Source of the DNA: an uncultured Nitrososphaerota archaeon
Lineage (GTDB): Archaea > Korarchaeota > Korarchaeia > Korarchaeales > Korarchaeaceae
DNA: 32,000 nt
Direction of reading: 5' to 3'
Assembly (NCBI GenBank): GCA_964480775.1
Contig: CAYZRF010000009.1
Location: 1 to 32,000 of the forward strand
Shown here piece after piece: positions 5,349-32,000 of the stretch (positions within the stretch are counted from its first letter, which is position 1; every line of letters starts with the position of its first letter). Below the pieces are notes generated by a model. It did no database searches, was not told where the DNA came from, and saw only the letters and a list, made by a program, of their open reading frames with translations. Made by a program: the position numbers and the translations under genes.

Positions 5349-5349
5349 A

Positions 5350-12367: not shown

Positions 12368-12423
12368 TTAAATCGCCTTTTTCCAGAGAAAAAATGAACC
12401 GTTCTTTCGAATTGTTTAGTAAT

Positions 12424-14184: not shown

Positions 14185-14619
14185 TCATCTCACCTCCTCA
14201 AGAGCTATCACATTGTAAGGGCAGTAGTTCGCGCAATAGCCACAGTACACGCAGATTATGGGCTTGTTTACCTCTTCATCCCAGAAGATTGCTCCAAAGG
14301 GACATGCTTCAACACAATAACCGCAAGCTATGCATTTTTCGGGCTTAAGGATGACGCCTCCCCCTTTTCTAGGCACGAGAGCATCTTCAGGACATACTTT
14401 TGCACATGGAGGCTCTGAGCAGGCTCTGCAAACCACTACGATAAAGCCTTTCTCCATGCCTCCGGCACTTTTAACGTGTATCGCTGACTTTCCATAACCA
14501 ACTTCAGCGAATCTTCTAGTGCAGGCAAGCATACATGAAGCGCAGCCTACGCATAAATCAGAATCTAGAACTGAGAGGCGTTTCGTCAAATATATCCCAA
14601 GTTTGATGTAAATCCTCAC
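14185..14619 (-). CDS. Polyferredoxin-type iron-sulfur protein (four 4Fe-4S cluster motifs), putative electron-transfer subunit of the AOR-family enzyme
   Basis: 144-aa ORF with Cys clusters CVGCASCMLAC, CRACSEPPCAKVCP, CIACGYCVEACP and CVYCGYCANYCP. Its stop abuts the AOR start. The track start is GTG at 14619; the TTG 10 codons downstream (MTKRLSVLD...) is an alternative. Confidence 0.88.
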   Translation of the reverse strand: MRIYIKLGIYLTKRLSVLDSDLCVGCASCMLACTRRFAEVGYGKSAIHVKSAGGMEKGFIVVVCRACSEPPCAKVCPEDALVPRKGGGVILKPEKCIACGYCVEACPFGAIFWDEEVNKPIICVYCGYCANYCPYNVIALEEVR

Positions 14620-16553: not shown

Positions 16554-16573
16554 GAAGCCTCCTCCTGATTAGA

Positions 16574-17953
16574 TTAAGGTTTACTTACGCCTAATTCCTC
16601 TAATTCCTTCCAAACCCTTTCATATATGGCGAGCCAGTCTGGAACTGGTTTAAGAGTTACCAGGTTAGTGAGCTCCTTAAAACTGCGTCCCTTTGGAGGA
16701 TCCCTTAACCTTCCCTCGTACTTTGGTAAGAGCTCCTTAACGACATAGTTAACATCGGAGAGCTTCATTCCGGCAGATGCTTTCAATATTTCTGCGCAGA
16801 ACTTATTCTCAAGCCCACTACAATAATTAGGATATTTACATGCAGCTGGTCTTGTTCCGATCACGATAGCAGCCCCAGATACTGCTTCGGCGAGGGAGAT
16901 GCAAGCTGTCTCATACAAGATCATATCAGTTCCTGGACCAGCCACCTGACTGGTTATTCCTAGAACCATTGAGCGGCTGTTTCTAGATTTGGCTTGATTA
17001 GCTACGCTCGTAGCCCAAAGAGCTTCCCTTCCGCAGTTTCCAAAGTATCTTCCATCTAATATTGTGCTCTCTATAACAGTTGGTTGCATTGATGCTGCCT
17101 GTAGGATGTGGGCTGCAATTGCGCCTAAGGCTGCCCCTTCAGGAGGGCCGAAATATCCACCTATAGTTGTCATGTGCCCTGCTTCAATTGAAGTACCTGT
17201 AATCAGGGCAACGGCTACTCTGTGCAATATCCTATGTGGTAGGGTGATGGGCTCAGGTATTAGACATATGGCAAGCGTGCACTCTGGCTCAAATCCCCCT
17301 GGTAGGAAACCTCCGAAGAAGCCATACTCTGTAGGTGCTCCTTCAACCCCAAACACAGGCATTCCAGGCCTTCCAGCCCTATGAAGGGCCTCTTTAACAA
17401 GCTTTGCCTCGTAAAATCCCGCCAGGGTCTCATAGGGCGTCCTTGATCTAACCTCCCTTCCGTGAAGCCTGTCTAGACAGGCACCTAGAAGCATGTCCAC
17501 AACCCTGTATTGGGCGATTGACTGACAGATTGGGACATAAAGCTCCTCTGAGACAGAGAGCCCTAGAGCAGACATGGCTGCTATAGGAGGACTCGGGTCC
17601 TCGGGCACCCTGACCTTGATAGTGATCCTATCCTTTCCCTTTCCCAATGAGACCTCGGATACTGCATTTTTTAGCGCTTCCTCTATCTCCTCTTCGGTGA
17701 ACTTGACAATTCTCTCAGTCTCAGGGCAGAACATTCCCAGCTCAACCGCAAGAGAGAAACCTGCCTCCCAGAACTCATCAGCTAAACTGAGATCCATGTT
17801 TATGGGATTGTTTGGATCGAACGTCCTCTCTAACCCGTGATCCTTTAATACCCTCATGGTTGTTCTGGGAACTAACTTGTAGTCCCACTCCTTTCTTGAG
17901 ATGGGAGGTCCTATTAGGGTCCTGTCCATAACCTCTAACAGCTTCGATACCAT
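16574..17953 (-). CDS. MtmB-family (monomethylamine methyltransferase-like) protein lacking pyrrolysine; putative substrate:corrinoid methyltransferase (MT1)
   Basis: The ORF is open from GTG at 17971 (465 aa). ATG at 17953 (459 aa) is the likelier start, with GGAGGTGA 8 nt upstream inside the end of the corrinoid-protein gene. Blocks match recalled M. barkeri MtmB: KEWDYKLVP / DDWDLMKIP, RIVKFTEEEI / RIVKYTEDEI, PYETLA / PYEVLA, AGRPGMPVFG / AGRPGMGV(Pyl)G, AGPGTDMILYE / AGPCTEMCLLE, GRSFKE...LEELGV / GKTFQE...LEDLGL. There is no in-frame TAG. Confidence 0.8.
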   Translation of the reverse strand: MVSKLLEVMDRTLIGPPISRKEWDYKLVPRTTMRVLKDHGLERTFDPNNPINMDLSLADEFWEAGFSLAVELGMFCPETERIVKFTEEEIEEALKNAVSEVSLGKGKDRITIKVRVPEDPSPPIAAMSALGLSVSEELYVPICQSIAQYRVVDMLLGACLDRLHGREVRSRTPYETLAGFYEAKLVKEALHRAGRPGMPVFGVEGAPTEYGFFGGFLPGGFEPECTLAICLIPEPITLPHRILHRVAVALITGTSIEAGHMTTIGGYFGPPEGAALGAIAAHILQAASMQPTVIESTILDGRYFGNCGREALWATSVANQAKSRNSRSMVLGITSQVAGPGTDMILYETACISLAEAVSGAAIVIGTRPAACKYPNYCSGLENKFCAEILKASAGMKLSDVNYVVKELLPKYEGRLRDPPKGRSFKELTNLVTLKPVPDWLAIYERVWKELEELGVSKP

Positions 17954-17961
17954 TGAATTGG

Positions 17962-18651
17962 TCACCTCCACTCCCCAACTAGAACGGGCTTCTCAACCTC
18001 CTTTCCTCTTTCCTTCAATAGGTTACAGAGCTTTACAGCACCTTCCGCGTCCTTAGCCCATCCATCTGCCCCTATCTCCTTAGCCCACTCTGGATAGACT
18101 GCTGCTCCACCGACTATGACGTAATATTTGTCTCTGATTCCCATGTCCACTAGTCTCTGAATTACATCCCTCATGTAAAACATGGAAGGGCTCAATAGAC
18201 ACGAAATCGCAATGAAATCAGCCTCCGCCCTCTCAGCTTCCTCCACAAACTTCCTAGGTTCAACGTCAGATCCAAGGTCGAATACCTCATAGCCATTTGC
18301 CCTAAGCAAGGATGCTACTATGTTCTTCCCAATGTCGTGGATATCCCCGTAAATCGTCCCTATGACAACTTTTCCTTTCCTGAATTCCTGAGCTCTTTCA
18401 CTTAACTTTGGAATTATGATGTTTAAGGCTGCATAAGCTGTATCTGCTGCTAATACCAAATCAGGTAGGAATAGCTCTAACTTCTCGTATTTCTCCCCAA
18501 CTGTATCAAGGCCCTTCTTTAATCCCTCATTTATTATCTCTAGCGGGTCTATTCCTGCTTCAAGCGCTCTTTTAGTTGCTTCTTTTATGCCTTCTTCATC
18601 ACCATTAACAACCAAGTCTTTTAATCGATCTAGCAGTTCCTGCTTTCCCAT
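17962..18651 (-). CDS. Corrinoid (cobalamin-binding) protein of methyltransferase systems (MtmC/MtbC/MtaC-like)
   Basis: 229-aa ORF with ATG start. It has an N-terminal helical B12-binding_2 cap and a Rossmann-like domain carrying the D-x-H-x-x-G motif (GDIHDIGKN: D103, H105, G108), followed by the SCLLS and VIVGGAA blocks. Confidence 0.92.
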   Translation of the reverse strand: MGKQELLDRLKDLVVNGDEEGIKEATKRALEAGIDPLEIINEGLKKGLDTVGEKYEKLELFLPDLVLAADTAYAALNIIIPKLSERAQEFRKGKVVIGTIYGDIHDIGKNIVASLLRANGYEVFDLGSDVEPRKFVEEAERAEADFIAISCLLSPSMFYMRDVIQRLVDMGIRDKYYVIVGGAAVYPEWAKEIGADGWAKDAEGAVKLCNLLKERGKEVEKPVLVGEWR

Positions 18652-19510: not shown

Positions 19511-21514
19511 TTACGTTTGGTAAGGAGATTTTGAGGGTTTTTTGTTGTATGTTCTAAGTTCGATTGCAGTTGGTATTGAAAAGACAAAAGCTACCAAAGC
19601 CAGCCATCCAGAGATGTTTGATTCAACAATCTCTGCATTGAGAATTTTTTCCCACGAAATCTCATTTATTTGGCCGTCTTTCCCTATTTTGATCGTTGCT
19701 ACATTCTCATAAACTCTCTCTTGCCAAGTTCCCAAATGATACAACCAGATTTTGAGGGAAATTCCTCCCTCTGTTATCCCGCTGTGACGCATAACCTCCT
19801 CTAAACTCTCTACATAAATGTTTGAAACTATCTGATCAGATTCCACCTCCGATTCTCCTGAGGAAATTTCAACCACGTCTACGCTCAAAACCCAACGGAC
19901 TTTGATCTCATGGGCTTCATCTCGCTGTTTAACCCAAATCTCAATGCTTGAAGGCCTTCCAACTACCCTCAAATTTGAGGGCTCAGTCCTATGACAGCCG
20001 CAGGAATATTGAGGAAACTCCACGAAAGTTCCGTCCGGCCATCTAACAACCACTTGAGCTTTCCAGCTTGGAATTGAGAGAGAAAACCAAAGTATGGACA
20101 TACAAGTTAAGGCAAAGAGAATGATCGCTAGATAACGCTTGCCTTTTGACCATATAGCTGCTGATACTAAGACAAATGGGAAGCAAAAGAAGGCCTTTAG
20201 AGGATCCGATCTCGCCAAACAAAGCGAGGCTATTGCTCCCATCGAAAATATTAAGGTGAGACGGGAATTGAATGACCTAACTTTTTCTAAATCCAAGAAC
20301 GGAATAATTACTCCTGCCGCTCCTAGAGAAGCTCTAATCAGCACAGGAGTGTCGTAACTAGTTGCTAAGAAATATGTCCCCAGAGACAATAGCAAGATGC
20401 CTGATATCAGGTCAATAATAGTTACCTTTGTTCCTATCCATCTCTTCATTGTTCTTGACTTTAATCCTGCCCAAACGCTAAGTAATATGGCAATTAAAGG
20501 CGAGATGAATACAGAGTTGTAAAGAATGAGTGCTAGAAAGGCTCTAGTCTTATTAATGCCGACTAAGAATGAGGAAGCAAGAAGATAAGGTCCCATGGAG
20601 CAAGGAAGTAATGTAAAGCTAACCAAGGCTCCTAAGGTAATTGCCTCAACGGAGCTTGCAGAACCCTCAAAGACCTCAAATCTTCTAATAGTGATTTTTC
20701 TCAGAGGCTTAGGCAAAGGAGCCCTATGAATCCCTGATTGAAAGTTTCTCAACTCGAAAACGCCTAGAGCTATGAGGGCAGCACTGAAGAGGGGGATGAG
20801 GGTCCTCAGAAGGGAGGCAATGGTCAGGAGCCCCAGACCCAGAAGGAAGTAACATAGATAAACTGTGGCGATAAAGGCAACACCTGACCTAAGCGCTCTT
20901 CTCCTTCCACCAGAAGCCATAGAGAGGACCAAAAGGGTAGCAAATACCACGAAAGTGCAGGGGTTCACTGAATCCGCAGCCGCTAAAATAAAGAACTCTT
21001 TAAGCTCAAATTGAATTGAAGATGGCTTTGATTTGAAAATTTCCTCTAATCTCTTAACTTCTTCTCCTTCTAGATATCTTAGCTCATGTTCTTTGTAAGA
21101 AACTAACACAGATCCAGGACTTATCCTTCCTTCTAGTGAACTTAGGAATTCTTGGTCATGATAACCAGCCAAGATTGCCACAAGACTGTCCTGAGAAAAG
21201 ACTACAACTAAAGGAGCTGCTCGAACCCCTTGAGGAAAGGCAAGTTCATAGATCTCATCTACTATGGCGGCTATTTCAGCTCCTTCTGGACCAGATAACT
21301 CATAGAAAACAATTGATTCATTTCCGAATAGTTCTGATATGGTTTTAAGCTCCGACCCGCACTCAGAGCATCCAATTGTTCCGTATACAACAAAAGTCAA
21401 ATTAGGCTGTGCATAAATGGAAGCCAGTTGTGTTGAAAAAACCATGGCTATTAGCAAAGCAACTAAGATCTTCATCAAGATTAAGCTTGCGATCCTTCTT
21501 TTTTTGCCTTTCAA
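19511..21514 (-). CDS. Fusion protein: signal anchor + thioredoxin-like CxxC domain + CcdA/DsbD-type thiol:disulfide transporter core + extra TM helices + C-terminal extracytoplasmic domain
   Basis: 667-aa ORF. C49-S-E-C52 sits in a Trx-like context (VVYGTIGCSECG). The DsbD/CcdA signature cysteines are in TM helices: DSVNPC186TF and LLPC305SMGP. Additional helices follow, then a ~150-aa beta-rich segment with a CGC motif and a final TM anchor. Confidence 0.7.
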   Translation of the reverse strand: MKGKKRRIASLILMKILVALLIAMVFSTQLASIYAQPNLTFVVYGTIGCSECGSELKTISELFGNESIVFYELSGPEGAEIAAIVDEIYELAFPQGVRAAPLVVVFSQDSLVAILAGYHDQEFLSSLEGRISPGSVLVSYKEHELRYLEGEEVKRLEEIFKSKPSSIQFELKEFFILAAADSVNPCTFVVFATLLVLSMASGGRRRALRSGVAFIATVYLCYFLLGLGLLTIASLLRTLIPLFSAALIALGVFELRNFQSGIHRAPLPKPLRKITIRRFEVFEGSASSVEAITLGALVSFTLLPCSMGPYLLASSFLVGINKTRAFLALILYNSVFISPLIAILLSVWAGLKSRTMKRWIGTKVTIIDLISGILLLSLGTYFLATSYDTPVLIRASLGAAGVIIPFLDLEKVRSFNSRLTLIFSMGAIASLCLARSDPLKAFFCFPFVLVSAAIWSKGKRYLAIILFALTCMSILWFSLSIPSWKAQVVVRWPDGTFVEFPQYSCGCHRTEPSNLRVVGRPSSIEIWVKQRDEAHEIKVRWVLSVDVVEISSGESEVESDQIVSNIYVESLEEVMRHSGITEGGISLKIWLYHLGTWQERVYENVATIKIGKDGQINEISWEKILNAEIVESNISGWLALVAFVFSIPTAIELRTYNKKPSKSPYQT

Positions 21515-21637: not shown

Positions 21638-22456
21638 ATGTCTAGATTTGAAAGCTTTTACAAGCTATTTAACACAAAAAAGCCAATCATAGGAATGGTC
21701 CATCTGCCGCCTCTCCCAGGCTCACCCCGATACAACGGGGATATGGAAGGTTTGATCAAAAGGGCCGTCTCAGATGCTAGGGCTCTTGAGGATGGGGGGG
21801 TAAATGGACTGATTGTGGAGAACTATGGCGATAAGCCTTTTAGAAGAGATAAAGTCGGACCCGAAACAGTTTCTGCAATGACTTTAGTTCTGAAGAGCGT
21901 GTTAGAGGCAACATCTCTGCCAGTCGGAGTTAATGTGCTTAGAAGCGATTGTGTCTCTGCTCTAGCTATAGCTTCAGTAACTGGAGCAAAGTTCATCAGG
22001 TGTAATGTTTTTACCGATACCTTGGTCACGGATCAAGGCATTATTCAGCCCTGTGCATGGGAAGTCTTGAACTTAAGGGCGTTTCTCAAATCTAAGGTCA
22101 TGGTGTTCGCTGATGTTCTTAGCAAACATGCTAGGCCCTTAGTCCACCTGACAATAGAGGAATCAGCAAGAGCTGCCGCCTATAGAGGAATGGCCGACGC
22201 CATAATAGTAACTGGAACGGAGACCGGGGTTAGTCCGGATCCTGAGAGGGTTAAGAGGATTAAGGAGGCTGTTTCGGATGTTCCGCTCCTAATTGGAAGT
22301 GGTCTCAACCCAGATAACGCTGTAACACTGTTAAAACATGCAGATGGGGCTATCGTTGGCACATATTTCAAGGAAAAAGGTTTTGTAGAAAATAAAGTCG
22401 ACACGGAGAGGGTAAGAACCCTCATAAAAACCATAAAGATGCTCGATCATAGGTGA
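21638..22456 (+). CDS. BtpA/SgcQ-family TIM-barrel protein
   Basis: 272-aa ORF. The ATG is preceded by GGGAGGA 7 nt upstream. The family N-terminal block is KPIIGMVHLPPLPGSPRY; later blocks are VENYGD.PF and GSGLN..N......ADGAIVGT.FK. Confidence 0.85.
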   Translation: MSRFESFYKLFNTKKPIIGMVHLPPLPGSPRYNGDMEGLIKRAVSDARALEDGGVNGLIVENYGDKPFRRDKVGPETVSAMTLVLKSVLEATSLPVGVNVLRSDCVSALAIASVTGAKFIRCNVFTDTLVTDQGIIQPCAWEVLNLRAFLKSKVMVFADVLSKHARPLVHLTIEESARAAAYRGMADAIIVTGTETGVSPDPERVKRIKEAVSDVPLLIGSGLNPDNAVTLLKHADGAIVGTYFKEKGFVENKVDTERVRTLIKTIKMLDHR

Positions 22457-22460: not shown

Positions 22461-23816
22461 ATGGATCTCCTGAATGGAGACTGGTGGAAAGCTGGCGCTG
22501 GCCCTGGAGGTTTGTGTCTAAATGGTCTAAAGGCCATCATTACTATGGAACCCTCAAATCCGATTATTTGGAATGGTCACATTTGTGTCGAGGATGGATT
22601 GATAAAGAGCATAGGTGTTGGTAAGGGACCAAGGGCAGAGGTAGAAATAGAGACTCATGGGAAGGTAGCTATTCCTGGCATGATAGATCTCCACTCCCAT
22701 TCTACTCAATCTTTTCTAAGGGGTGTATTCGATGAGATATGCCTCATGGAGTGGTTAAACGAAACCGATGTATCCTATTCGAGAGCAAAAAGAGAATTGC
22801 TTGAAATATCATCTACGATCTCTTTTCTCGAAAGATTGAAGGGAGGAGTCACCACAGTAGTGGATATGGAGCCCTTTCCCGAGATAATTGCTCGAGCTTC
22901 TGAAAAGATTGGTTTGAGGACCGAAATCTCCGTTCTGATGGCTGATACCCCAGAACTTCCTAGTCAAGAGGTTTCATCGCTAGAACAGGAGTTGAAAAAG
23001 GCTAAAAGTGCTATACAAAAGTTTCAGAGAAATCAAAAGTTATGGGTATCTCTAGCTCCCGTAGGTTTTCCTGCAGCCTCAAATGAACTTTTTAAGAGAT
23101 CTGCAGAACTCGCAAAGGAAAAAGGACTAAGGCTCCATACTCATGTTGCTGAGAGCAGAATAAACGCAAACCTATGCAAGAGAAGAAATAGGAGGAGCGA
23201 AATTGAGCTTCTAGAGGATCTTGGATTCTTAGGTCCAAAAACTCAACTTGCCCATGCTATCTGGATAAGCGAGACGGATATCGAGACTCTTTCAAAATAT
23301 AGAACTGCAGTCGTTCATTGCCCTTCAAGCAACCTGAAGCTCGCAGCAGGCGTGTCGAAAGTACCTGAGATGATAAAAATGGGAGTTAAAGTTGGACTTG
23401 GGCTTGATGGAGCAGCTAGCAACTCCAGCCAAGATATGTTCCAAGAGATGAGAATCGCATCAACATTACATAAAGGGGTTAAAGGAAATCCAAAAGCCGT
23501 GAAAGCCGAAGAAGCACTTAATATGACGACTGTACAAGCTGCAAAAATACTTAGACTTGAAAAAACGTTAGGAAAGATATCTCCTGGCTATTGGGCTGAT
23601 TTTTCTCTAATTGATGTGTCACAACCCAGGTACTTACCAATAGAGGCCATAAGGTCGCACATAGTTTATTCAGCCCAAGCTTCCGATGTTTTCGGTGTAA
23701 TAGTTGGGGGAGAAGTTCTTGTTTGGGAAAGAACGCACACCAGTTTTGACGAAACTTCCCTCTTAAAGAGAGCAGGTGAACTTTTCTCAGAGTTCCTGAA
23801 CGGTGTGCTCCTTTGA
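22461..23816 (+). CDS. Metal-dependent amidohydrolase of the MtaD/SsnA/chlorohydrolase (nucleobase/nucleoside deaminase-like) group
   Basis: 451-aa ORF. Blocks present: KAIITMEP...VEDGLIKSIG, IPGMIDLHSHSTQSFLRG (HxH), LHTHVAES, VVHCPSSNLKLAAG, GLGLDGAASN. The ATG lies 4 nt after the BtpA stop. TTG at 22512 is an alternative start. Confidence 0.85.
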   Translation: MDLLNGDWWKAGAGPGGLCLNGLKAIITMEPSNPIIWNGHICVEDGLIKSIGVGKGPRAEVEIETHGKVAIPGMIDLHSHSTQSFLRGVFDEICLMEWLNETDVSYSRAKRELLEISSTISFLERLKGGVTTVVDMEPFPEIIARASEKIGLRTEISVLMADTPELPSQEVSSLEQELKKAKSAIQKFQRNQKLWVSLAPVGFPAASNELFKRSAELAKEKGLRLHTHVAESRINANLCKRRNRRSEIELLEDLGFLGPKTQLAHAIWISETDIETLSKYRTAVVHCPSSNLKLAAGVSKVPEMIKMGVKVGLGLDGAASNSSQDMFQEMRIASTLHKGVKGNPKAVKAEEALNMTTVQAAKILRLEKTLGKISPGYWADFSLIDVSQPRYLPIEAIRSHIVYSAQASDVFGVIVGGEVLVWERTHTSFDETSLLKRAGELFSEFLNGVLL

Positions 23817-24925
23817 TCTCAAGGAAAAAGTTTACGTCACTGTACATTTCGACTTTTCTATTGACAACAGGCGTGGGAGCAACTATTCCAGCCCTAGCTC
23901 AAAAGGTCTACCTAATATCTTCATCAGACGAACTTGTCTCGCTAGTGATTGGAACTTGGGGTCTCTCTTACACAATATTGAGCGCTCTTTCTGGTTATTT
24001 AATTAACTTTTTTGGAAGAAAAGGGGTTTCTTTCCTTGGTTTGCTAGGTGCGTCTGTTTCTGGTATTATAATGGAGTTATCTAACTCTGTATCTGCGCTT
24101 GCCTCATCAAGATTCCTTACAGGGGCTTCTGAAGCTCTTGTCCTTAATTCTTTCATCACTATAACCTCTTTTGAATCCTTAGAAAAGAGAGAAGGCTGTC
24201 TTGGTCTACTGTATGCTTCTATGGGTCTTGGATTGTTCTCGGGACCTTTTTTCTACTCTTACTTCTTGGGATCAGATCCCAAAAAAGGCTTTTTCTTGTT
24301 GATTCTTCTTCCTCTTATGTCAATACTCCTTCTTCCATCATATCAAGAGGGATTTTCAATGGATAGGTCGTCTCACCCTAACTTAAGAAAAGTAGCTATC
24401 CCTTTAACTGTGTCTCTACTAATAGGGGCATTGGAAGGATATTTTCAAGGGTCGGGAGTGAGCCTTGTTAGAGCTTGGGGGCATGATCCCTCGGATTTTG
24501 GAAAGATTTTGTCCCTCTATTTTGCGTTTAGCATTGTCGTCCAAGGCACGATGCCCTTCTTGACCAAAGTTTTTAGGGCGGATAGCTGGGCAGTTAGCTT
24601 TTCTATATGGACAATCTTCACATCGAGCCTGCTCATCGAGTTAAGGTCCAAAAAATTTCCTTTCTTATTCTCTGGCTTATTTGGGGCTTCTATTGCCGTT
24701 TGTAGCGTAGCTTTAACTTCATTATTATCTGAATTAACTACAGAGAAGGAAAGAGCATTTGCTATAGGGATGTCGAGTTCAACTTATTCACTGGGCTACT
24801 TTATTTCTCCTATTTTCGTCTTTATATTCAAAAATCAGGTTTTTGGAGTGTTCTTTATGTCTATACTACTTTTTCTCTTAGCAGCAATCATTAGATTTCC
24901 GTTAAGACCTTCTAACGAGATTTAA
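23813..24925 (+). CDS. MFS-type transporter
   Basis: 370-aa ORF with about 11-12 hydrophobic helices and a motif-A-like block, SGYLINFFGRKGV. The TTG start overlaps the amidohydrolase stop (TTGA). Its 3' end overlaps the convergent ecfA gene by 14 nt. Confidence 0.65.
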   Translation: MISRKKFTSLYISTFLLTTGVGATIPALAQKVYLISSSDELVSLVIGTWGLSYTILSALSGYLINFFGRKGVSFLGLLGASVSGIIMELSNSVSALASSRFLTGASEALVLNSFITITSFESLEKREGCLGLLYASMGLGLFSGPFFYSYFLGSDPKKGFFLLILLPLMSILLLPSYQEGFSMDRSSHPNLRKVAIPLTVSLLIGALEGYFQGSGVSLVRAWGHDPSDFGKILSLYFAFSIVVQGTMPFLTKVFRADSWAVSFSIWTIFTSSLLIELRSKKFPFLFSGLFGASIAVCSVALTSLLSELTTEKERAFAIGMSSSTYSLGYFISPIFVFIFKNQVFGVFFMSILLFLLAAIIRFPLRPSNEI

Positions 24926-25736
24926 GAAATTTCCGAATTACTTCTGCGGCCTCGTCAACCGTCAAGAACTTTTTTGGGAATTTCCCAACCTTGAGGTTTA
25001 GCTCCACAACCTGTGGAGGTCTTATGAAAGCCTTTCGCAAAGTCTCATAGTCATATAAGACTTCTTCTACCGATCCATCCTTCAAGATCCTACCATCTGC
25101 CATCAAAATAACTCTTTTAGCAGTTCTGGCAACGAATCTCATGTCATGAGTTATTACTACAACAGTTTTACCTTCTTCATTGAGTCTTATGCATAGATCG
25201 CTTAGAACCTTTCTTCCAACATGATCTTGACCTGTTGTTGGTTCGTCTAAAACGAACACCTCAGGATTCATCGACAATATTGAGGCAACCGTTAGAAGCT
25301 TCCTCTTTCCGAAATCTAAATCATAAGGATGCATTTCTTCAGTTCCTTCCAATCCAACAACCTTCAAAGCCTCTTTTACTCTTCTATCCACCTCTTCCTC
25401 ACTTAAGTCCAAGTTTCTAGGACCATATGCAACTTCTTCGTAAACAGTACTCATAAATATCTGGTGAGCTGGGTTTTGGAACACATATCCGACCTTCGCT
25501 ACTATTTTATGGGTTGGGGTCTCTTTAGTGTCCATTCCTGCAACAACAACTCTACCCTTCGTAGGTTTTAAGAGTCCATTGAAATGTTTCGCCAAAGTTG
25601 TCTTTCCTCCACCATTCTGGCCTATCAAAGCAAGGATCTCTCCAGGATGGATCTCTAGGTTAATCTCTTTTAACGCAACGACTTCTGGACTGTATTCGAA
25701 CCAAACGTCCTCAACCCTAATTATTGGTTCAGTCAT
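24912..25736 (-). CDS. ecfA2: ECF-transporter ATPase component with degenerate ABC signature motif
   Basis: 274-aa ORF. Walker A is GQNGGGKTT, Q-loop is FQNPAHQ, Walker B is VFVLDEPTTGQD and H-loop is ITHD. Where LSGGQ is expected the sequence reads LDFGK. The start overlaps the upstream stop (TAATG). The symbol reflects gene order only. Confidence 0.88.
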   Translation of the reverse strand: MTEPIIRVEDVWFEYSPEVVALKEINLEIHPGEILALIGQNGGGKTTLAKHFNGLLKPTKGRVVVAGMDTKETPTHKIVAKVGYVFQNPAHQIFMSTVYEEVAYGPRNLDLSEEEVDRRVKEALKVVGLEGTEEMHPYDLDFGKRKLLTVASILSMNPEVFVLDEPTTGQDHVGRKVLSDLCIRLNEEGKTVVVITHDMRFVARTAKRVILMADGRILKDGSVEEVLYDYETLRKAFIRPPQVVELNLKVGKFPKKFLTVDEAAEVIRKFLKSR

Positions 25737-26590
25737 TAACTTAACGCCTCCTTATAGAGATCTATTGCTTCATCTAGCGTTATTGGGTAATCTTCTCTTG
25801 ATACCCCCAACTCATTTCTGAGAAGGTGCGTGAGTTCAGTTACCGAAGGCGGATCTACCCCTATCTCCTTAAGTTTCTCTACGCTTGACAAAACTCTCTT
25901 TCCCTCACCTTTTAATACCATTTCCCCATCATATAGCGCTATAATCTCATCTGCAAATGTTGCAAGTTCCTCTATCTCATGCTCAGCGACTACTATCGTT
26001 TGACCTCCAGCAGCAAGTTCCTTAACAGTTTCGAAAACCTCAAACTTTCCTATGGGATCTAGTTGGGCAGTTGGTTCATCAAGTACCAGTATCTCGGGTC
26101 TTACTGCTAAAACGGTTGCTATGGCTAGCCTTTGTTGCTGTCCTCCAGAGAGTTCGTAAGGTGATCTTCCCTCCAGACCTTTTAATCCAACCGTTTCTAT
26201 AGCTTCTTTGACCCTTTTATCAATCTCTTCTTTAGGAAATCCGAGCATGGCAAGACCAAAAGCAACTTCTTCCTCTAATGTAGTTGCAACTCCCGATAGC
26301 TGATCTAGTGGATCCTGAAATACGATTCCTACCTTCGTCGAGAGCTCCGCTATGGTGTGTTTAAGGGTATCCATTCCAGCGACGATAACTTTGCCAGACA
26401 TTCTGCCGCCAAAGAACTGAGGCACAATTCCGTTTAGAGAAAGGCATAAAGTTGTCTTTCCAGCTCCGTTTGGACCTATTATCCCTAAAACTCCTCCTCT
26501 CTTAACTTTGAAGGAGATGTGCTTAAGCACATTCTCCCTCGTAGGGTAGGAATAAGTGACATCTTCAACAATGACCGGATACTCTTCCAA
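25736..26590 (-). CDS. ecfA1: ECF-transporter ATPase component (canonical motifs)
   Basis: 284-aa ORF. Walker A is GPNGAGKTT, Q-loop is FQDPLDQ, the signature is LSGGQQQR, Walker B is ILVLDEPTAQLD, and the H-loop histidine sits in AEHE. TTG start. The symbol reflects gene order only. Confidence 0.9.
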   Translation of the reverse strand: MEEYPVIVEDVTYSYPTRENVLKHISFKVKRGGVLGIIGPNGAGKTTLCLSLNGIVPQFFGGRMSGKVIVAGMDTLKHTIAELSTKVGIVFQDPLDQLSGVATTLEEEVAFGLAMLGFPKEEIDKRVKEAIETVGLKGLEGRSPYELSGGQQQRLAIATVLAVRPEILVLDEPTAQLDPIGKFEVFETVKELAAGGQTIVVAEHEIEELATFADEIIALYDGEMVLKGEGKRVLSSVEKLKEIGVDPPSVTELTHLLRNELGVSREDYPITLDEAIDLYKEALS

Positions 26591-26613
26591 TCTAATCGCC
26601 TCTTCCCATAAAA

Positions 26614-27564
26614 CTATCTCCCATAAACAACTCTGGAAACTAGGAGATCAATGAAGGCCTTACCATCAAGGTCAACGCAGACATTGGCATTCGCAGGTCT
26701 CTTAAAGGATTCCGGAAGCCATTCTCTAAGATCTGCCAGAGTTTCGCCGCGCGTTAAAGTACCGCAGACTTCAACATCTACATGAAGCCTCTTAAACTTG
26801 AAGATTTCTGGCTTTATCATATAGCTTAGGGCCATTGGATCGTGCATAGGAACTGGTTCTATAAGATAGACGAATCTTCTCAGCATCTTTTGTATTAACT
26901 CTCCCGTCTTAGTTCCTGCCTTGCCTATCTCTTCATAGAGGGATTTGCTTATCCCCGCATCTGGCCTCATGGTAACATCAAGACCGAAGGCGTAGATCTC
27001 TGCTCCTGAATTAAAGACTATTTTCGCTGCCAAAGGATCTGTAGCAATGTTGAACTCGGCTCTTGGACTTTCATTTCCATATCCCCAAGGAGTTGTTGCA
27101 TAGGCTCCACCCATTATAACGATAGAAGACAGTTTATTGGCAATATTGGGTTCAAGAAGCAATGCCATTGCAACATTGCTAAGAGGTCCAGTTGCTACGA
27201 TACTTATCTCCTTTGGACCACTGTCCATAACTTTCTCTCTTATGAAGTCAACAGCATGGCCCTTCGCAGGTTTCATACGGGGTTCTGGGAGATTAACGTC
27301 TCCAAGTCCATCTTGGCCGTGAACAAATTCAGCTGTCCTAAGTTCTCCAAACATAGGTCCTTTCATACCAGCAAATACTGGGACTTTCTCTAATCCCATA
27401 AATTCAAGCATTTTGAGGGCATTTTTCGTGGTTAATTCAAGAGGAACATTTCCTCCTACCGTTGTGATTCCTAAAATCTCCAATTCTGGAGATCTGCAAG
27501 CAAGCATTATAGCGATAGCATCGTCTATTCCAGGATCCATGTCCAGAATTACTTTCTTACCCAT
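26614..27564 (-). CDS. Inosine-uridine-preferring-type nucleoside hydrolase (IU-NH family)
   Basis: 316-aa ORF with ATG start. It has the N-terminal aspartate cluster ILDMDPGIDDAIAI (DxDxxxDD), then GNV, ATGPLSN and HDP blocks. Confidence 0.92.
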   Translation of the reverse strand: MGKKVILDMDPGIDDAIAIMLACRSPELEILGITTVGGNVPLELTTKNALKMLEFMGLEKVPVFAGMKGPMFGELRTAEFVHGQDGLGDVNLPEPRMKPAKGHAVDFIREKVMDSGPKEISIVATGPLSNVAMALLLEPNIANKLSSIVIMGGAYATTPWGYGNESPRAEFNIATDPLAAKIVFNSGAEIYAFGLDVTMRPDAGISKSLYEEIGKAGTKTGELIQKMLRRFVYLIEPVPMHDPMALSYMIKPEIFKFKRLHVDVEVCGTLTRGETLADLREWLPESFKRPANANVCVDLDGKAFIDLLVSRVVYGR

Positions 27565-27566
27565 AT

Positions 27567-28415
27567 TTATCCCGCTACCACATATTTGAGATGAACAATG
27601 GGTGAATTCCCGTATTTCAAATAGATATACACAACTAAAATGGTCAAAGCTGCCATTCCAGCCATGAAAACGAAATCTTCCATTTGAAAAGTTATCTCCT
27701 TCAAAGGAGTCTTTTTAGTGGGGGCGGTAAAACCTCTCGACTCTAAAGTTATTGCTCTCGTCTGAACTCTATTCAATGAAGACAGAGTTAAAGGAACTAC
27801 CAAAGCTATGTAATTCTTGAACTTCTTTACAAGACCCACATCGGTCTTAAGACCTCTAGACACTTGAGCCTGAAAGATTGTTCCAACCTCATCTGCTAAA
27901 ATTGGAATGAGTTGGACTGCTGCAGTAAACATGTAAGCCAGCTTATACGACATTTTCATTTTCGTTATGGTAGAAGTTATCTCCGCCAGTGGAGTAGTCA
28001 AGTAGAAAAGCATCGCTGAACCTATGCAAACTCCCACCCTTGCAGGCCAGGTTATTGCATACGCTAATCCTTCATAATAAAAGGAAAATTCTCTGCCAAA
28101 TAACTTAATCGTAAAGAGAACTGTTTCATTACCCTGAAAACCTGCTGAAGGTGACAAGATAATTATCCCAACTAATATCCACGGAATCACTATTACGGCT
28201 TCAGTTAGATAGATCTGTTTGTGTATCTTTGCAATTCTTGCGCACATAAGTAGTGCGACAAGCAGCACTGAGACAAGTACATAATCATAGAAAAGGTAGG
28301 CTATTATAGATATCCACCAGAAAAAGATGAATTTTGTCCTTCCATCGAGCCGATGAAAAAAGGTGTTGCCTGCTGTATAAGCTCTCTTCAATAATAAGCT
28401 TCCTACAGCACTCAA
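27567..28415 (-). CDS. ecfT: ECF-transporter transmembrane T component (EcfT/CbiQ family)
   Basis: 282-aa ORF. LDGRTKF is near the N-terminus and several TM helices follow. The conserved coupling-helix arginine motifs are QAQVSRGL and TRAITLESRGF. Confidence 0.85.
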   Translation of the reverse strand: MSAVGSLLLKRAYTAGNTFFHRLDGRTKFIFFWWISIIAYLFYDYVLVSVLLVALLMCARIAKIHKQIYLTEAVIVIPWILVGIIILSPSAGFQGNETVLFTIKLFGREFSFYYEGLAYAITWPARVGVCIGSAMLFYLTTPLAEITSTITKMKMSYKLAYMFTAAVQLIPILADEVGTIFQAQVSRGLKTDVGLVKKFKNYIALVVPLTLSSLNRVQTRAITLESRGFTAPTKKTPLKEITFQMEDFVFMAGMAALTILVVYIYLKYGNSPIVHLKYVVAG

Positions 28416-28458
28416 CTACATCACCAAAAAAGAGGAAAGGGGGAATTTATATAAACAA

Positions 28459-29049
28459 TTATCTCTTTGCCAAGACGAAGCGCTTAGGAACCCTGCTTGC
28501 GACGATAAGAGCTAAGATCCATGAGATTGATTTGTCTATTAGCTCAGTCGCCACATTCTGAAGATAGTATGCCAGAAGCTGATTCCCGGTGGCACTCAAA
28601 ACACCAAAGTAAACTATTGCTGTTGGTTTCGCTAGAGGACCGGCACCAAACGTGTAGAGCCCTATTGCTGTACATTGGATTGAGTAAACAAAACCTAACC
28701 ATAGGAAGGCAGGAATGAGCTTCAATGGTTTCTTTAGGTCATCCCAACCGAGTTTCATGAACATAAAGGACCATATGGCTATTGCTATGTTACATGTCCC
28801 CCAGATCCAAGCTGGTAGACCCCACACAGTCATAGCCATAATAAGGTTGTAAAGGAAACCTCCTATTGCTCCAACCCACACACCCGAGATCAGTGTTCCC
28901 AACATCGTAGCCCAGGTGTCTCCCCAAATGGGTAGTTTGAGAGTCTCTACTATTACCCCTGTCACGTAGTTCAGTCCTGCAATTACTGGAATCATTACTA
29001 GAGCCATTATCTTTGCCCCAGTAGGCACAACTTCCCTACTTTCTGACAT
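28459..29049 (-). CDS. ECF-transporter substrate-capture (S) component-like membrane protein, specificity unknown
   Basis: 196-aa ORF with six hydrophobic helices. It shows the S-component-like pattern LPIWGDTWATMLGTLISGVWVGAIGGFLYNLI and lies directly upstream (43 nt) of ecfT. Confidence 0.6.
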   Translation of the reverse strand: MSESREVVPTGAKIMALVMIPVIAGLNYVTGVIVETLKLPIWGDTWATMLGTLISGVWVGAIGGFLYNLIMAMTVWGLPAWIWGTCNIAIAIWSFMFMKLGWDDLKKPLKLIPAFLWLGFVYSIQCTAIGLYTFGAGPLAKPTAIVYFGVLSATGNQLLAYYLQNVATELIDKSISWILALIVASRVPKRFVLAKR

Positions 29050-29153
29050 ACCGCATCATCTTCCTCGTTTCGTTAGTTGGCTAACCTGTCGCCTGATATA
29101 ATATTAAGATTTCCCCTTTTTCACCAAAAAAGAAATGTAGGTGTGGTAAAAGG

Positions 29154-29936
29154 TTAAACTATCAAACCACCTTTGTCCAATAGAACAATAGCTTCTAAAG
29201 CCACTCTTATCATGTTCTTTTCCCCTGATATAGCCTTACCTTCTTTCGTTTCAGTTGCTTGAACCGCATATTCCCTAATTCCTTCGGCTGGTTCCTCTCC
29301 GAATTCATCAACAACATTTACTATGCATCCTGCCTTTATTCCTCTGAGCCTTCCTACCGTCATAAGTGTTGCTGCTTCCATTTCAGCAGCTATAACCCCC
29401 ATTTTGTGCCAAAATTGATCCATTTTTCTTATTTTACCTGAATAAAGCGCATCTTCACTTCTAGTGATTCCTACCCAGTATTTGAAGCCTATTTCGTCTT
29501 TGAGCGAATCTGCTGCTCTAACTAGAGCCACATATACTTCTGGATCTGGAACTGCTGGATATCGGACTGGAACGTACTGCTTGCTAGTTCCATCCTCTCT
29601 TACGACTCCTTGGGATATAACGAGGTCCCCTATTTTGATACCTGGCTGAAGAGCCCCACAGCTTCCTACACGAATTATTACTTTTGCCCCCACGTTTGCA
29701 AGCTCCTCTACTGCTATAGCGGTGCTAGGTCCACCAATTCCTGATGATGTGGCTGATACTCGAATTCCCTTGTACGTTCCAGTTATTGTTCTGAACTCCC
29801 TGTTGAATGCAATTTGCTTGTAATCATCTAACAGCTCACCTATCCTTAGCACCCTTCCTGGATCACCAGGCATCAACACGTATTTAGCGACATCTCCCTT
29901 CCTGCACAAAATATGTGGCTGAAGCGTTCCTTCCAT
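29154..29936 (-). CDS. Nucleoside phosphorylase, PNP/UDP family (second copy)
   Basis: The ORF track extends to 30044 (296 aa). Alignment with the paralogue at 4599-5348 begins at M37 (MEGTLQPHILCRKGDVAKYVLMPGDP vs MGIQPYIMCGPGDVAKYVLLPGDP), and an A/T box sits about 26 nt upstream of that ATG, so I call the start at 29936. Blocks present: TYKGIRVSATSSGIGGPSTAIAVEEL, IIRVGSCGALQ, AEMEAATL. Confidence 0.85.
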   Translation of the reverse strand: MEGTLQPHILCRKGDVAKYVLMPGDPGRVLRIGELLDDYKQIAFNREFRTITGTYKGIRVSATSSGIGGPSTAIAVEELANVGAKVIIRVGSCGALQPGIKIGDLVISQGVVREDGTSKQYVPVRYPAVPDPEVYVALVRAADSLKDEIGFKYWVGITRSEDALYSGKIRKMDQFWHKMGVIAAEMEAATLMTVGRLRGIKAGCIVNVVDEFGEEPAEGIREYAVQATETKEGKAISGEKNMIRVALEAIVLLDKGGLIV

Positions 29937-29954
29937 AGATTCTGAAGGTTCATG

Positions 29955-29967
29955 TAATTCTAATAAA
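29955..29967 (-). promoter_or_regulatory. Candidate TATA box for the second nucleoside phosphorylase gene
   Basis: On the reverse strand, TTTATTAGAATTA spans -31 to -19 relative to the ATG at 29936. The spacing matches the other first-gene A/T boxes in the window. Confidence 0.3.
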
Positions 29968-30082
29968 CTTGTTTGAGATTCCAGATTATGAAATCTCTTT
30001 TCACGAAAAACTATAAACACCTCCTTGTTGCACTCACTCTCCACCCCTCAGTTTCAAAGCATGATGGTGCGTCTTCGCATTT

Positions 30083-31021
30083 TTATCCACGAAAACTACT
30101 TTGTTTCTCCTTAAGAAAGGCCTCAAGCTCTTCCAAGGTTGGAAGGGCTTCTTGGGCTCCTATCTTAGTGGTTGCTAGAGCTCCAGCATGATTCGCCATA
30201 AAAACAGCTTCGTTTAGGTTTTTTCCTGAAGCCAAAGCAAATGCAAGAGCACCACAAAAGGCATCACCAGCACCTGTTGTATCAACGGCTTTAACACTAA
30301 CTCCTGGGATAATTTTATGCTCATTCTTATCAACAAGCAGGGCTCCTTTTTTCCCAAGCGTTATAACTACGGCGTTTATACCAAATCCTAATAATTTTCT
30401 TCCCGCCTCTATAGCAGAATCTAAATCTTTTACAGGTATTCCAGTGAGAATTTCTGCTTCTACCTCGTTTGGAACAATTACATCCACTGATTCTAATAGC
30501 TCCTTAGGTAAGGACCTTGCGGGGGCAGGATTCAGAATTACCCTAAGGCCAATCTGTTTTGCGAGCGTAGCAGCATATTGAACAGTTTCTGTTGGAATCT
30601 CTAATTGAAGAAGGAGCACAGATGTCCTTTTCATTAGATCCTTTATCCTATTAACATCTTCAGGTGAACACCGAGAATTGGCTCCAGAGGCTACAGCTAT
30701 CAAATTCTTTCCAGCCTGATCAACCATTATAAGAGCGACTCCTGTATGTGCATTTTTGTCAATTGTTAGATAATCCACATTTACGCCTTTATCCTTGAAG
30801 TTCTTCAGAAGTATTCTTCCAAAATCATCGTCTCCTACCCTACCAACAAAATAAGACTCTGCTCCCAACTTTGAAGCTGCGACTGCTTGATTTGCACCTT
30901 TTCCTCCTGGAGACATCTTAAATTTCCCGCCAATTACAGTTTCTCCAACTACTGGGAGTTTTCTTAGTTTTACAATGAGATCCATGTTAGCAGAACCTAC
31001 TACAACAATCCTAGGACCCAA
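30083..31021 (-). CDS. rbsK: Ribokinase (PfkB family)
   Basis: 312-aa ORF. Blocks present: IVVVGSANMDL, PGGKGANQAVAA, and the C-terminal anion-hole/catalytic block VDTTGAGDAFCGA. TTG start. Confidence 0.88.
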   Translation of the reverse strand: MGPRIVVVGSANMDLIVKLRKLPVVGETVIGGKFKMSPGGKGANQAVAASKLGAESYFVGRVGDDDFGRILLKNFKDKGVNVDYLTIDKNAHTGVALIMVDQAGKNLIAVASGANSRCSPEDVNRIKDLMKRTSVLLLQLEIPTETVQYAATLAKQIGLRVILNPAPARSLPKELLESVDVIVPNEVEAEILTGIPVKDLDSAIEAGRKLLGFGINAVVITLGKKGALLVDKNEHKIIPGVSVKAVDTTGAGDAFCGALAFALASGKNLNEAVFMANHAGALATTKIGAQEALPTLEELEAFLKEKQSSFRG

Positions 31022-31201
31022 GGAACCACCGGCATTCCTTTCACGAAGAACTCAAAAAAGTGTTGCAGTTTGAAATACTTGTTGACACAATCCGCATTTT
31101 AAACCTATTTGAAGCTCCTAAAGACAGTTTAATAGTAGTTTAGGCCCAAAATTCAGATTATTTTCAAGTCTAGAATGGAAACAATCTCACTAACCAAAGA
31201 G

Positions 31202-31213
31202 ATTAATTAATTT
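31202..31213 (+). promoter_or_regulatory. Candidate TATA box for the edge-truncated amidohydrolase gene
   Basis: ATTAATTAATTT is centred about 26 nt upstream of the ATG at 31233, in the 211-nt divergent spacer shared with rbsK. Confidence 0.3.
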
Positions 31214-31232
31214 CTCAAAAGTTGGAATTTAG

Positions 31233-32000
31233 ATGGCTGATATCCTTATCAGACGTGGAATTGTAGTTCCCATGACTGAGAGAAAGATCTTGAAAGAAAC
31301 TTCAATTGCGGTAAGAGAAGGAAGAATTGTTGCTATGGGACCAGACGACACCATTAGAAGGGAATTTCCATCGGATATAGAGATAGATGCGTCCGATCAC
31401 ATAGTAATACCTGGTCTCATCAATACTCACACCCATCTCGCAATGACATTATTCAGAGGGGTGATGGATGGAGTTTCAGGCATGGAATGGCTCGACAGAG
31501 CGTGGTCCATAGAATCAAATCTCACTAGAGACGATGTATACTGGGGATCCTTGTTAGGTTGCTTAGAGATGATAAAAGGAGGAACCACCTGTTTTGCGGA
31601 TCACTACTTCTTCATGGATACAGTGGTAGACGCTGTTAAGGAGTCCTTTATTAGAGCTGCCTTAGCTCAAGCAATAATTGAAGAAGGAGGGCCTATGGGC
31701 ATAGATACCACGCTTGAGGGAAGTTTAAACTTTGCAAAGCGATATGATGGAGCGGCAAAGGGAAGGATAACTTGCATGCTTGGTCCACACTCTGCTTACA
31801 CTTGTAGTCCGGATCTATTGAAGGAAGTAAGAGGACTATCAGAGGAAACAGGTCTAAGGGTTCACATACACTTATCTGAAGGTATGTCTGAGTTAAGGAT
31901 TGTAAAAGAAAAGTATAAAACAACTTCAATAAGGTTACTCAACCAAATAGGACTTCTTAACCCAAAATTGCTGGCAGCTCATGTAGTCTTTGCCGATAAA
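31233..32000 (+). CDS. MtaD-like amidohydrolase (methylthioadenosine/adenosine/nucleobase deaminase family), 5' part; runs off the right window edge
   Basis: Absent from the ORF track because it has no stop in the window. Translation from ATG 31233 is open for all 256 codons: MADILIRRGIVVPMTERKILKETSIAVREGRIVAMG...HIVIPGLINTHTHLAMTLFRG...GGTTCFADHY...RVHIHLSEG...LLAAHVVFADK. It has the canonical HxH and HxxE blocks of this family. Confidence 0.85.
   Translation, partial: MADILIRRGIVVPMTERKILKETSIAVREGRIVAMGPDDTIRREFPSDIEIDASDHIVIPGLINTHTHLAMTLFRGVMDGVSGMEWLDRAWSIESNLTRDDVYWGSLLGCLEMIKGGTTCFADHYFFMDTVVDAVKESFIRAALAQAIIEEGGPMGIDTTLEGSLNFAKRYDGAAKGRITCMLGPHSAYTCSPDLLKEVRGLSEETGLRVHIHLSEGMSELRIVKEKYKTTSIRLLNQIGLLNPKLLAAHVVFADK

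Follow-up and report, generated by a model that had tools for sequence, protein, structure and literature searches.

A dedicated ECF transporter with a new S component family, predicted to import nucleosides, in Thermoproteota archaea

Introduction

Little is known of the routes by which most archaea obtain nucleosides. It was only in 2025 that a first nucleoside transporter of archaea, an ATP-binding cassette (ABC) transporter of the BMP type, was reported; it is from Thermococcus, where the pentose bisphosphate pathway supports growth on the nucleosides that it imports (PMC12628685). NupDABC of Thermococcus kodakarensis, a proposed archaeal nucleoside importer feeding the type III RuBisCO pathway, is of the classical ABC type, with the extracytoplasmic binding protein NupD and NupABC-type permeases (PMC12628685). 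In contrast, the system described here has the S/T architecture of an energy-coupling factor (ECF) transporter and no binding protein. It is encoded in 32,000 nucleotides of DNA from an uncultured Nitrososphaerota archaeon (assembly GCA_964480775.1, contig CAYZRF010000009.1, positions 1 to 32,000), here called the window, where the genes for an S component (S), EcfT (T), EcfA (A) and EcfA' (A') are interleaved with genes for nucleoside and ribose enzymes. The analyses below indicate that it is probably a dedicated importer of one or more canonical ribonucleosides.

The original prediction for this DNA regarded ECF transporters chiefly as importers of vitamins and metals and overlooked the riboside-import precedent of QrtT-QueK (PMC11130926, PMC11477304). 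Queuosine imported by QrtT is subsequently hydrolysed in the cytoplasm (PMC11130926, PMC11477304), and import of a riboside by an ECF system thus already has a precedent. QrtT/QueK(/QueL) of Clostridioides difficile and the group I systems QrtTUVW likewise have an S gene beside a gene for a hydrolase of the inosine-uridine (IU) nucleoside hydrolase family. QrtT is a member of PF12822, uses a shared ECF module in C. difficile, is under the control of a preQ1 riboswitch and has queuine lyase as a partner, whereas the present S protein is below the PF12822 threshold and has its own T, A and A', and no riboswitch was detected. The partners also differ from those of QrtT-QueK, being here a ribokinase, uridine-phosphorylase-like enzymes and deaminases, to which relatives add RuBisCO and ribose-1,5-bisphosphate isomerase; the present partner enzymes therefore point to bulk nucleoside catabolism or salvage in archaea. 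An importer of alpha-ribazole (CblT) and a predicted importer of methylthioadenosine (MTA), MtaT, have reportedly also been described. No description of an archaeal ECF nucleoside importer, or of the present gene arrangement, was found in full-text searches of the literature. The novelty lies in the S family, which in Thermoproteota is linked to nucleoside catabolism and to the pentose bisphosphate pathway, and in the class of substrate predicted for it.

Organization of the gene cluster

The cluster comprises seven co-directional genes on the minus strand, which are listed below in order from the ribokinase gene, together with the intergenic region that divides them.

30083..31021, minus strand: ribokinase (RbsK), PF00294 and TIGR02152
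29154..30044, minus strand: uridine-phosphorylase-like nucleoside phosphorylase (PNP_UDP_1), PF01048
29050..29153, minus strand: intergenic region of 104 nt between the phosphorylase and S genes
28459..29049, minus strand: S component, 196 aa, about six transmembrane helices, assigned by fold and position
27567..28415, minus strand: EcfT, transmembrane coupling component, PF02361 (CbiQ)
26614..27564, minus strand: inosine-uridine-type nucleoside hydrolase, PF01156, between ecfT and ecfA
25736..26590, minus strand: EcfA, first ABC ATPase, PF00005 and TIGR04520
24912..25736, minus strand: EcfA', second ABC ATPase, PF00005 and TIGR04521

All seven genes lay where the original prediction had placed them, in the same order and on the same strand. 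Its spacers were reproduced on recomputation, at 104 nt between the phosphorylase and S genes, 43 nt between S and T, 2 nt between T and the hydrolase gene and 23 nt between the hydrolase gene and A, as was the overlap of ecfA and ecfA', which is 1 nt long and reads TAATG. The 104-nt gap holds an oligo-T run 3' of the phosphorylase stop codon, a purine-rich stretch and an AT-rich TATA-like element, TTAATATTATAT, at about 29096-29107, approximately 47 nt upstream of the S start, which is probably a separate promoter for the transporter operon. Because the gap contains these three features, two transcription units are inferred, one of rbsK and the phosphorylase gene and the other of S, T, the hydrolase gene, A and A'. 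No Rfam family was found at E≤1 in positions 24000-32000, the gap included, and hence no riboswitch or known RNA element. A scan for bacterial-type promoters and terminators gave counts no higher than expected from shuffled sequence, bacterial models being uninformative when applied to archaeal DNA. Exactly two copies of the 12-mer CTTTTTTGGTGA are present in the window, on the minus strand at 28421-28432 and 29121-29132, just 3' of the S and phosphorylase stop codons. A role as an archaeal terminator or attenuator of the oligo-T type is possible, but the repeat was not accepted as significant by itself, two matches being reached in 7 of 100 shuffles.

The S component

Searches with the 196-aa protein gave no Pfam match at E≤0.01. 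Against the generic S component family PF12822 it scored 8.2 bits, below the cut-off of 30.7, and across the archaeal S family 19 of 25 members matched this model weakly, with a best E of 3.7e-4. The only NCBIfam match was to the substrate-unassigned model NF045596, 'CD3073 family putative ECF transporter S component' (1.1e-14), and the score of 54.5 bits against a cut-off of 180 indicates that the protein is not a member of that family. A profile of the S family retrieved nothing from the PDB sequences at E≤10, and the protein had no match to the vitamin-specific Pfam and NCBIfam families (RibU, ThiT, BioY, QueT, CbiM and others). Membership of a vitamin-specific S family was accordingly rejected, as no Pfam, NCBIfam or PDB-sequence match spoke for it; the classification on which the original prediction had been made to depend thus left that prediction standing.

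The fold was more informative. An AlphaFold2 model built on 24 homologues reached a predicted local distance difference test score (pLDDT) of 89.6 and a predicted template modelling score (pTM) of 0.85, and in a Foldseek search against the PDB its ten best matches were the ECF S components RibU and ThiT, with a probability of about 1.0, TM-scores of 0.50-0.64 and sequence identities of 11-18%, followed by weaker matches to FolT and other ECF S chains. The six-helix S fold is therefore common to the present protein and to RibU, ThiT and FolT, the Foldseek probability being 1.00 for RibU and ThiT. By its modelled fold and its adjacency to EcfT, the 196-aa protein is identified as an ECF S component, outside the characterised specificity families. 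Four tryptophans are invariant in its family, and the named NCBI records found for the family carry the label 'hypothetical'. The family is new in the sense that it is small, previously unclassified, found in Thermoproteota archaea and unrecognised by Pfam.

Homologues with at least 47% identity to S form about 120 clusters at 90% identity and come from Bathyarchaeia, Caldarchaeales/Nitrososphaeria, Thermofilaceae, Infirmifilum and Baldrarchaeota. Among public records, the nearest is the Guaymas Basin metagenome-assembled genome (MAG) Thermoproteota archaeon B15_G15, in which S is 94% identical and the gene order is the same. A search of 1.84 billion representatives (50% identity clusters) gave a top match at 1e-95, the next one dropping to 1e-46, which is consistent with a tight and small family. 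A protein labelled '[Eubacterium] cellulosolvens' (P0055) was not used as a close bacterial member, since near-identical relatives lie on Bathyarchaeia contigs.

EcfT and the ATPases

The gene next to S encodes an EcfT protein (PF02361 CbiQ, 3.7e-29; TIGR02454, 1.5e-21), the translation of which contains two Ser-Arg-Gly coupling-helix motifs, QVSRGL and LESRGF. Both ATPases matched PF00005, EcfA at 6.4e-31 and EcfA' at 6.1e-28, and their best NCBIfam models were, respectively, TIGR04520 (ECF_ATPase_1, 241.7 bits) and TIGR04521 (ECF_ATPase_2, 255.2 bits), both scores being below the equivalog cut-offs. Both proteins have the Walker A, Walker B and H-loop motifs. EcfA has the Walker A motif GPNGAGKTT, the canonical signature LSGGQ and an unusual AEHE H-loop context, and EcfA' has the Walker A motif GQNGGGKTT and a degenerate signature, LDFGK. 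Nearly all of 31 aligned EcfA' sequences carry this degenerate form (with variants LDYGK, LDYGQ and LNYGQ) and not LSGGQ, which predicts that the ATPase pair has one degenerate and one consensus ATP site. The feature is not specific to this system, because A' signatures are likewise degenerate in an unrelated ECF module of the archaeal locus L006 (LLNKGE) and in a bacterial module (L047; DLTPAQ). No extracytoplasmic binding-protein family was detected by Pfam among the neighbouring proteins. In the original prediction the transporter had been called group I, or dedicated, a label that the joint encoding of S, T, A and A' bears out; by every testable criterion the predicted system is an ordinary group I ECF transporter, for which ATP-dependent uptake is expected.

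Conserved synteny with nucleoside enzymes

The genomic context of S was compared in 34 species-representative archaeal loci with an S identity of at least 47%, in which the window proteins were located by tblastn; neighbours were counted within 5 kb of the ECF block. EcfT was the gene after S in every relative whose contig reaches that far. S and T were accompanied by A and A' in 27 of the 34 loci, and the contigs of the other seven end no more than 111 bp beyond the last gene seen. In 25 of the 34 loci the IU nucleoside hydrolase gene was part of the ECF block or no more than 186 bp from it, and none was found in the 110 kb of flanking DNA more than 5 kb from the block. As all 25 hydrolase genes are this close and none occurs in the distant flank, the arrangement is not due to chance. 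When other enzymes were included, 28 loci had a nucleoside hydrolase or phosphorylase, 19 a PfkB kinase and 10 an MtaD-like amidohydrolase; 31 carried one or more of them. Absence of such synteny in related genomes had been named as an outcome unfavourable to the original prediction, which these frequencies bear out instead.

The association with nucleoside enzymes was kept in at least eight gene orders, as follows (A'-A and similar strings give the genes in sequence).

Order 1: hydrolase embedded between T and A (the window, L001 and L003)
Order 2: hydrolase divergent, upstream of S (Caldarchaeales)
Order 3: amidohydrolase-hydrolase-S-T-A-A', in a single direction
Order 4: A'-A divergent from S-T-hydrolase
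Order 5: hydrolase-A'-A divergent from S-T-phosphorylase-PfkB (Bathyarchaeia)
Order 6: two phosphorylases and an amidohydrolase beside the ECF block, without the hydrolase (Thermofilaceae MAGs)
Order 7: BtpA-hydrolase divergent from S-T, plus a neighbouring PfkB kinase (L004 and L006)
Order 8: RuBisCO and isomerase divergent from S-T-A-A', with hydrolase and ribokinase downstream (Thermofilum)

That the association outlasts so many rearrangements argues for functional coupling of the ECF and nucleoside genes and not for an inherited accident. Loci with a protein assigned by UniRef to T. pendens contain S-T-A-A', the hydrolase, PfkB and the phosphorylase. A conserved protein of 340 aa is encoded between the phosphorylase and PfkB kinase genes in Bathyarchaeia (L038, 11817-12839, minus strand; also L026, L027, L029, L031, L032 and L034), and it had no Pfam, NCBIfam or PDB-sequence match.

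Nucleoside and ribose enzymes of the cluster

The nucleoside hydrolase matched PF01156 at 6.6e-94 over profile positions 1-296 of 297. Its scores against the UriH, RihC and RihA models were about equal (236-260 bits) and all below the cut-offs, and its nearest solved structures are CU- and IU-nucleoside hydrolases. The metal-binding motif DXDXXXDD is present as DMDPGIDD at residues 8-15. Because the motif starts at residue 8, there is no room for a signal peptide; the enzyme is thus predicted to be cytoplasmic, and nucleosides would have to be taken up before it could act on them. No transporter other than the ECF system is conserved together with the hydrolase.

The ribokinase matched PfkB (PF00294) at 9e-79 and scored 372.2 bits against TIGR02152, above the equivalog cut-off of 299.65. 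The phosphorylase matched PF01048 at 6.5e-41, and both its best NCBIfam model, uridine phosphorylase TIGR01718 (214 bits, below the cut-off of 280), and its best PDB matches, 4lnh and 3qpb, are uridine phosphorylases. Its open reading frame (ORF) opens with GTG, a doubtful start since the Pfam domain begins only at residue 54 and an ATG is present at codon 37; this ATG, at about 29936, may be the true start.

Link to type III RuBisCO

In the Thermofilum loci, genes for type III RuBisCO (TIGR03326, 645 bits, cut-off 497) and ribose-1,5-bisphosphate isomerase (TIGR00511, 377 bits, cut-off 314) are divergent from S-T-A-A', and an IU nucleoside hydrolase and a ribokinase (329 bits, above the cut-off of 299.65) are encoded downstream. 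An independent instance of the link was found in a Bathyarchaeia locus (L033), where a RuBisCO gene and two IF-2B-family genes lie beside EcfT, and RuBisCO or the isomerase is also encoded in L024 and L006. The best model for the Bathyarchaeia PfkB proteins was ATP-dependent ribose-1-phosphate kinase, with scores below its cut-off. These RuBisCO and isomerase neighbours belong to the pentose bisphosphate pathway, by which archaea degrade nucleosides. In the window itself, neither type III RuBisCO nor the isomerase was among the Pfam-annotated ORFs of at least 100 aa. Thermofilum species have been reported to lack purine biosynthesis and to depend on external sources (PMC5823990), which fits the idea of a nucleoside-dependent host for some carriers of the system.

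Homologues in bacteria and DPANN archaea

A bacterial PF12822 family (alignment A2, with members from Mediterraneibacter gnavus and Halanaerobiaceae) aligned with the archaeal S family by hhalign at 99.4% probability and an E of 6.7e-22, with sequence identities of about 21-32%. The bacterial operon has the order S-T-A-A', followed by genes for a TrpF-like protein, a PfkB kinase, a RihA-like IU nucleoside hydrolase, a HAD phosphatase and an iron-containing alcohol dehydrogenase (Fe-ADH), and was found in loci L053/L054 (4838-14645, M. gnavus), L055/L056 and L047. Genes for an RbsR-like regulator and a ribokinase adjoin it and are fused to each other in M. gnavus; in L047 a GntR regulator takes the place of the RbsR-like one. 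Because the bacterial S operons carry the PfkB kinase, the RihA-like hydrolase and the ribokinase, the link of this S lineage with an N-ribohydrolase and a ribose-type kinase is not confined to archaea. The bacterial A2 family resembles the archaeal one in combining S-T-A-A' with a PfkB kinase and an IU nucleoside hydrolase. The two differ in the conserved motif of loop 1, which is DTWAT in the archaeal S proteins and DMIGT in the bacterial family, and in the TrpF-like, HAD and Fe-ADH genes and RbsR-like regulator that the bacterial operons add. The gene content suggests that the bacterial substrate is probably an unusual riboside.

S homologues with 36-39% identity were also found in DPANN archaea (L035, 6460-12307; L036, 3752-9624; L037, 6391-12310), in a conserved five-gene operon encoding an MMPL transporter, a CARDB-like protein, the S-like protein, a protein of 232 aa and a ParA/MinD-like ATPase with a winged helix. 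Neither EcfT nor EcfA is encoded in these operons; they were regarded as a different system and rejected as further support. The representative search also returned proteins of about 430 aa with an S-like domain at the C-terminus.

Proposed function and alternative explanations

In the proposed mechanism, S would bind a nucleoside outside the cell and topple inside the scaffold formed by EcfT, with the transport cycle powered by the ATP turnover of the EcfA/EcfA' heterodimer. In the cytoplasm, the co-transcribed IU-type hydrolase would split the nucleoside into base and ribose, and the uridine-phosphorylase-like enzyme would convert nucleosides to base and ribose-1-phosphate; the ribokinase would then form ribose-5-phosphate from ribose, and the MtaD-like amidohydrolases could deaminate adenosine-type nucleosides or the released bases. 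In relatives, but not in the window, ribose-1-phosphate could be passed through ribose-1,5-bisphosphate isomerase to type III RuBisCO and yield 3-phosphoglycerate. The data establish the gene identities, the S fold, the layout of the operon and the conservation of synteny, whereas the substrate is read from gene context, and the same applies to the direction of flux and to the choice between salvage and carbon supply.

Several observations weigh against a canonical nucleoside importer. ECF systems are classically high-affinity, low-capacity scavengers of micronutrients, and bulk nucleoside catabolism through one would be unusual. The NCBIfam scores of the hydrolase, phosphorylase and deaminase are all below the equivalog cut-offs and do not allow specificity to be assigned, so that a purine, a pyrimidine or a modified nucleoside would each be possible. 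Three of the 34 loci (L014, from Infirmifilum, L016 and L017) have no nucleoside enzyme within 5 kb, although the contig of L016 ends after T, and the neighbour in L014 is a major facilitator superfamily (MFS) gene; the Infirmifilum loci L045 and L046 likewise lack such an enzyme. Many of the 34 loci are phylogenetically related and hence do not represent independent events. Finally, the cluster has an MFS transporter gene beside it in the window, but this neighbour is not conserved in relatives.

One alternative, considered unlikely, is a salvage route of the QrtT-QueK kind, in which a modified or cofactor-type N-riboside is imported and the IU-type hydrolase frees a valuable base or precursor; candidates would be a 7-deazaguanine nucleoside (queuosine, archaeosine or preQ0 riboside), nicotinamide riboside, alpha-ribazole or aminoimidazole riboside. 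Trace micronutrients are the usual ECF cargo, the specificity of the hydrolase cannot be assigned from NCBIfam scores, and the TrpF-like, HAD and Fe-ADH genes of the bacterial homologues suggest a special riboside. Moreover, the only experimentally supported pairing of an ECF system with an IU-type hydrolase is queK-qrtT-queL of C. difficile, with QrtT importing queuosine (Q), queuine (q) and preQ1 (PMC11130926, PMC11477304). On the other hand, no tgt, queL or radical-SAM gene is present among the ten annotated proteins from 21638 to the end of the window, Rfam detected no riboswitch in 24000-32000, and the S protein is not a significant member of PF12822. The conserved partners are bulk-catabolic, namely ribokinase and uridine-phosphorylase-like enzymes and, in relatives, type III RuBisCO and ribose-1,5-bisphosphate isomerase. 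Queuosine, in particular, is not known to be used by archaea.

The chance that the ligand is free ribose, or a vitamin-type compound that is not a riboside, with the nucleoside genes as mere co-regulated neighbours, appears small. A ribokinase or other PfkB kinase is found near 19 of the 34 loci, the bacterial homologues are under an RbsR-like regulator, and the nearest solved S structures bind riboflavin and thiamine. However, in 25 of 34 loci and through many rearrangements a cytoplasmic N-glycosidase is encoded no more than 186 bp away, which is difficult to account for unless the substrate is a glycoside. The S protein is, moreover, just 11-18% identical to RibU and ThiT and matches no vitamin-specific Pfam family, and ECF importers of sugars are not known. 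Import of MTA, 5'-deoxyadenosine or a similar 5'-modified adenosine, as by the predicted MtaT ECF system, seems highly improbable. In its favour, two MtaD/DadD-like amidohydrolases flank the cluster, one of which has an MTA/S-adenosylhomocysteine (SAH) deaminase as its best PDB match, and in 10 of the 34 relatives a gene of this kind lies no more than 5 kb from the ECF block. Yet the kinase passes the ribokinase equivalog cut-off and is not a methylthioribose kinase, the partner with the highest conservation is a hydrolase of the IU/CU type and not an MTA nucleosidase or phosphorylase, the phosphorylase scores only 14.6 bits on the MTAP model, and the IF-2B-family genes of relatives score as ribose-1,5-bisphosphate isomerase and not as methylthioribose-1-phosphate isomerase. 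MTA and 5'-deoxyadenosine are, besides, endogenous by-products for which no importer is needed. The original prediction had offered a ribonucleoside or an MTA-like nucleoside as substrate; gene context favours the ribonucleoside, and the MTA-like part is less favoured because a bona fide ribokinase and an IU/CU-type hydrolase indicate nucleosides with unmodified ribose.

Import of canonical ribonucleosides would have consequences beyond this locus. Type III RuBisCO and enzymes that degrade nucleosides are present in many Thermoproteota, and some of them, Thermofilum for instance, are unable to synthesise purines; no assigned uptake route for nucleosides was found for these archaea in the searched literature. 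If the S family binds nucleosides, this gap would be filled. The substrate range of ECF transporters would be widened from vitamins and metals to common nucleosides, a function would be assigned to about 120 protein clusters that are mostly unnamed or 'hypothetical', and a single protein of 196 aa would be a defined and testable candidate. The S family also points to a related bacterial family without assigned function in gut Clostridia. A wider picture, offered tentatively and with more doubt than confidence, is that the archaeal family and its Clostridia homologues could form a two-domain S superfamily specialised for ribosides, that ECF transport, going beyond micronutrient scavenging, could be the main entry of nucleosides into Thermoproteota, and that it could provide carbon and energy through the hydrolase and ribokinase and through type III RuBisCO, as well as purines for auxotrophs such as Thermofilum.

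Flanking genes

Four genes on the plus strand adjoin the cluster.

31233..32000, plus strand: 5' part of an MtaD/DadD-like amidohydrolase gene, divergent from the ribokinase gene and running off the window
23813-24925, plus strand: MFS transporter, convergent with ecfA' and overlapping its 3' end by 14 nt
22461..23816, plus strand: second MtaD-like amidohydrolase, PF01979 (9.7e-61)
21638-22456, plus strand: BtpA/SgcQ-family TIM-barrel gene, directly upstream of the second MtaD-like amidohydrolase

The divergent amidohydrolase gene starts with ATG at 31233 and agrees in position and strand with the MtaD-like gene of the original prediction; its product is of the family of nucleoside or base deaminases, and its best NCBIfam scores (PRK06038, 1.2e-75; 5'-deoxyadenosine deaminase, 4e-50) were all below the cut-offs. 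The other three genes, just downstream of the cluster, had not been mentioned there. The best PDB match of the second amidohydrolase was the MTA/SAH deaminase 4f0r (8.2e-61), and it is plausible that this enzyme belongs to the system. BtpA-family genes are also present in relatives (L001, 1223-2026; L004, 14-631; L006, 8144-8926), where BtpA and a divergent PfkB kinase recur beside the hydrolase and S; from this context, BtpA may be an enzyme of a ribose or nucleoside module. In Infirmifilum, an MFS gene is divergent from S (L014, 8805-9851; L045, 6755-7867) and is not orthologous to the MFS gene of the window.

Other genes of the window

A second uridine-phosphorylase-like gene was found at 4599-5348 on the plus strand (TIGR01718, 229 bits, below the cut-off), and near it, at 5840-6646 on the same strand, a gene for a HAD-IIA phosphatase, the best model of which was the TK1734-type 2-phosphoglycolate phosphatase (243 bits, below the cut-off of 475). 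Phosphoglycolate is a by-product of the RuBisCO oxygenase reaction, and the gene pair at 4599-6646 may be another trace of nucleoside/RuBisCO metabolism.

ORFs at 19511-21514 (minus), 7464-8264 (plus), 11347-12371 (plus) and 5350-5778 (minus) had no Pfam match, one of them encoding 667 aa. A methyltransferase set occupies 15579-18651 on the minus strand, with genes for a URO-D/MtbA-like protein (15579-16553) and a corrinoid-binding protein (17962-18651). An MtmB-like protein of 465 aa is encoded at 16574-17971, also on the minus strand, and matched PF05369 over the whole profile (1.1e-79); its gene has no in-frame stop, which suggests a non-pyrrolysine form. The window also encodes an aldehyde:ferredoxin oxidoreductase with a ferredoxin (12424-14619), a P-type cation ATPase (8374-11130) and a ClC channel with CBS domains (1004-2758).

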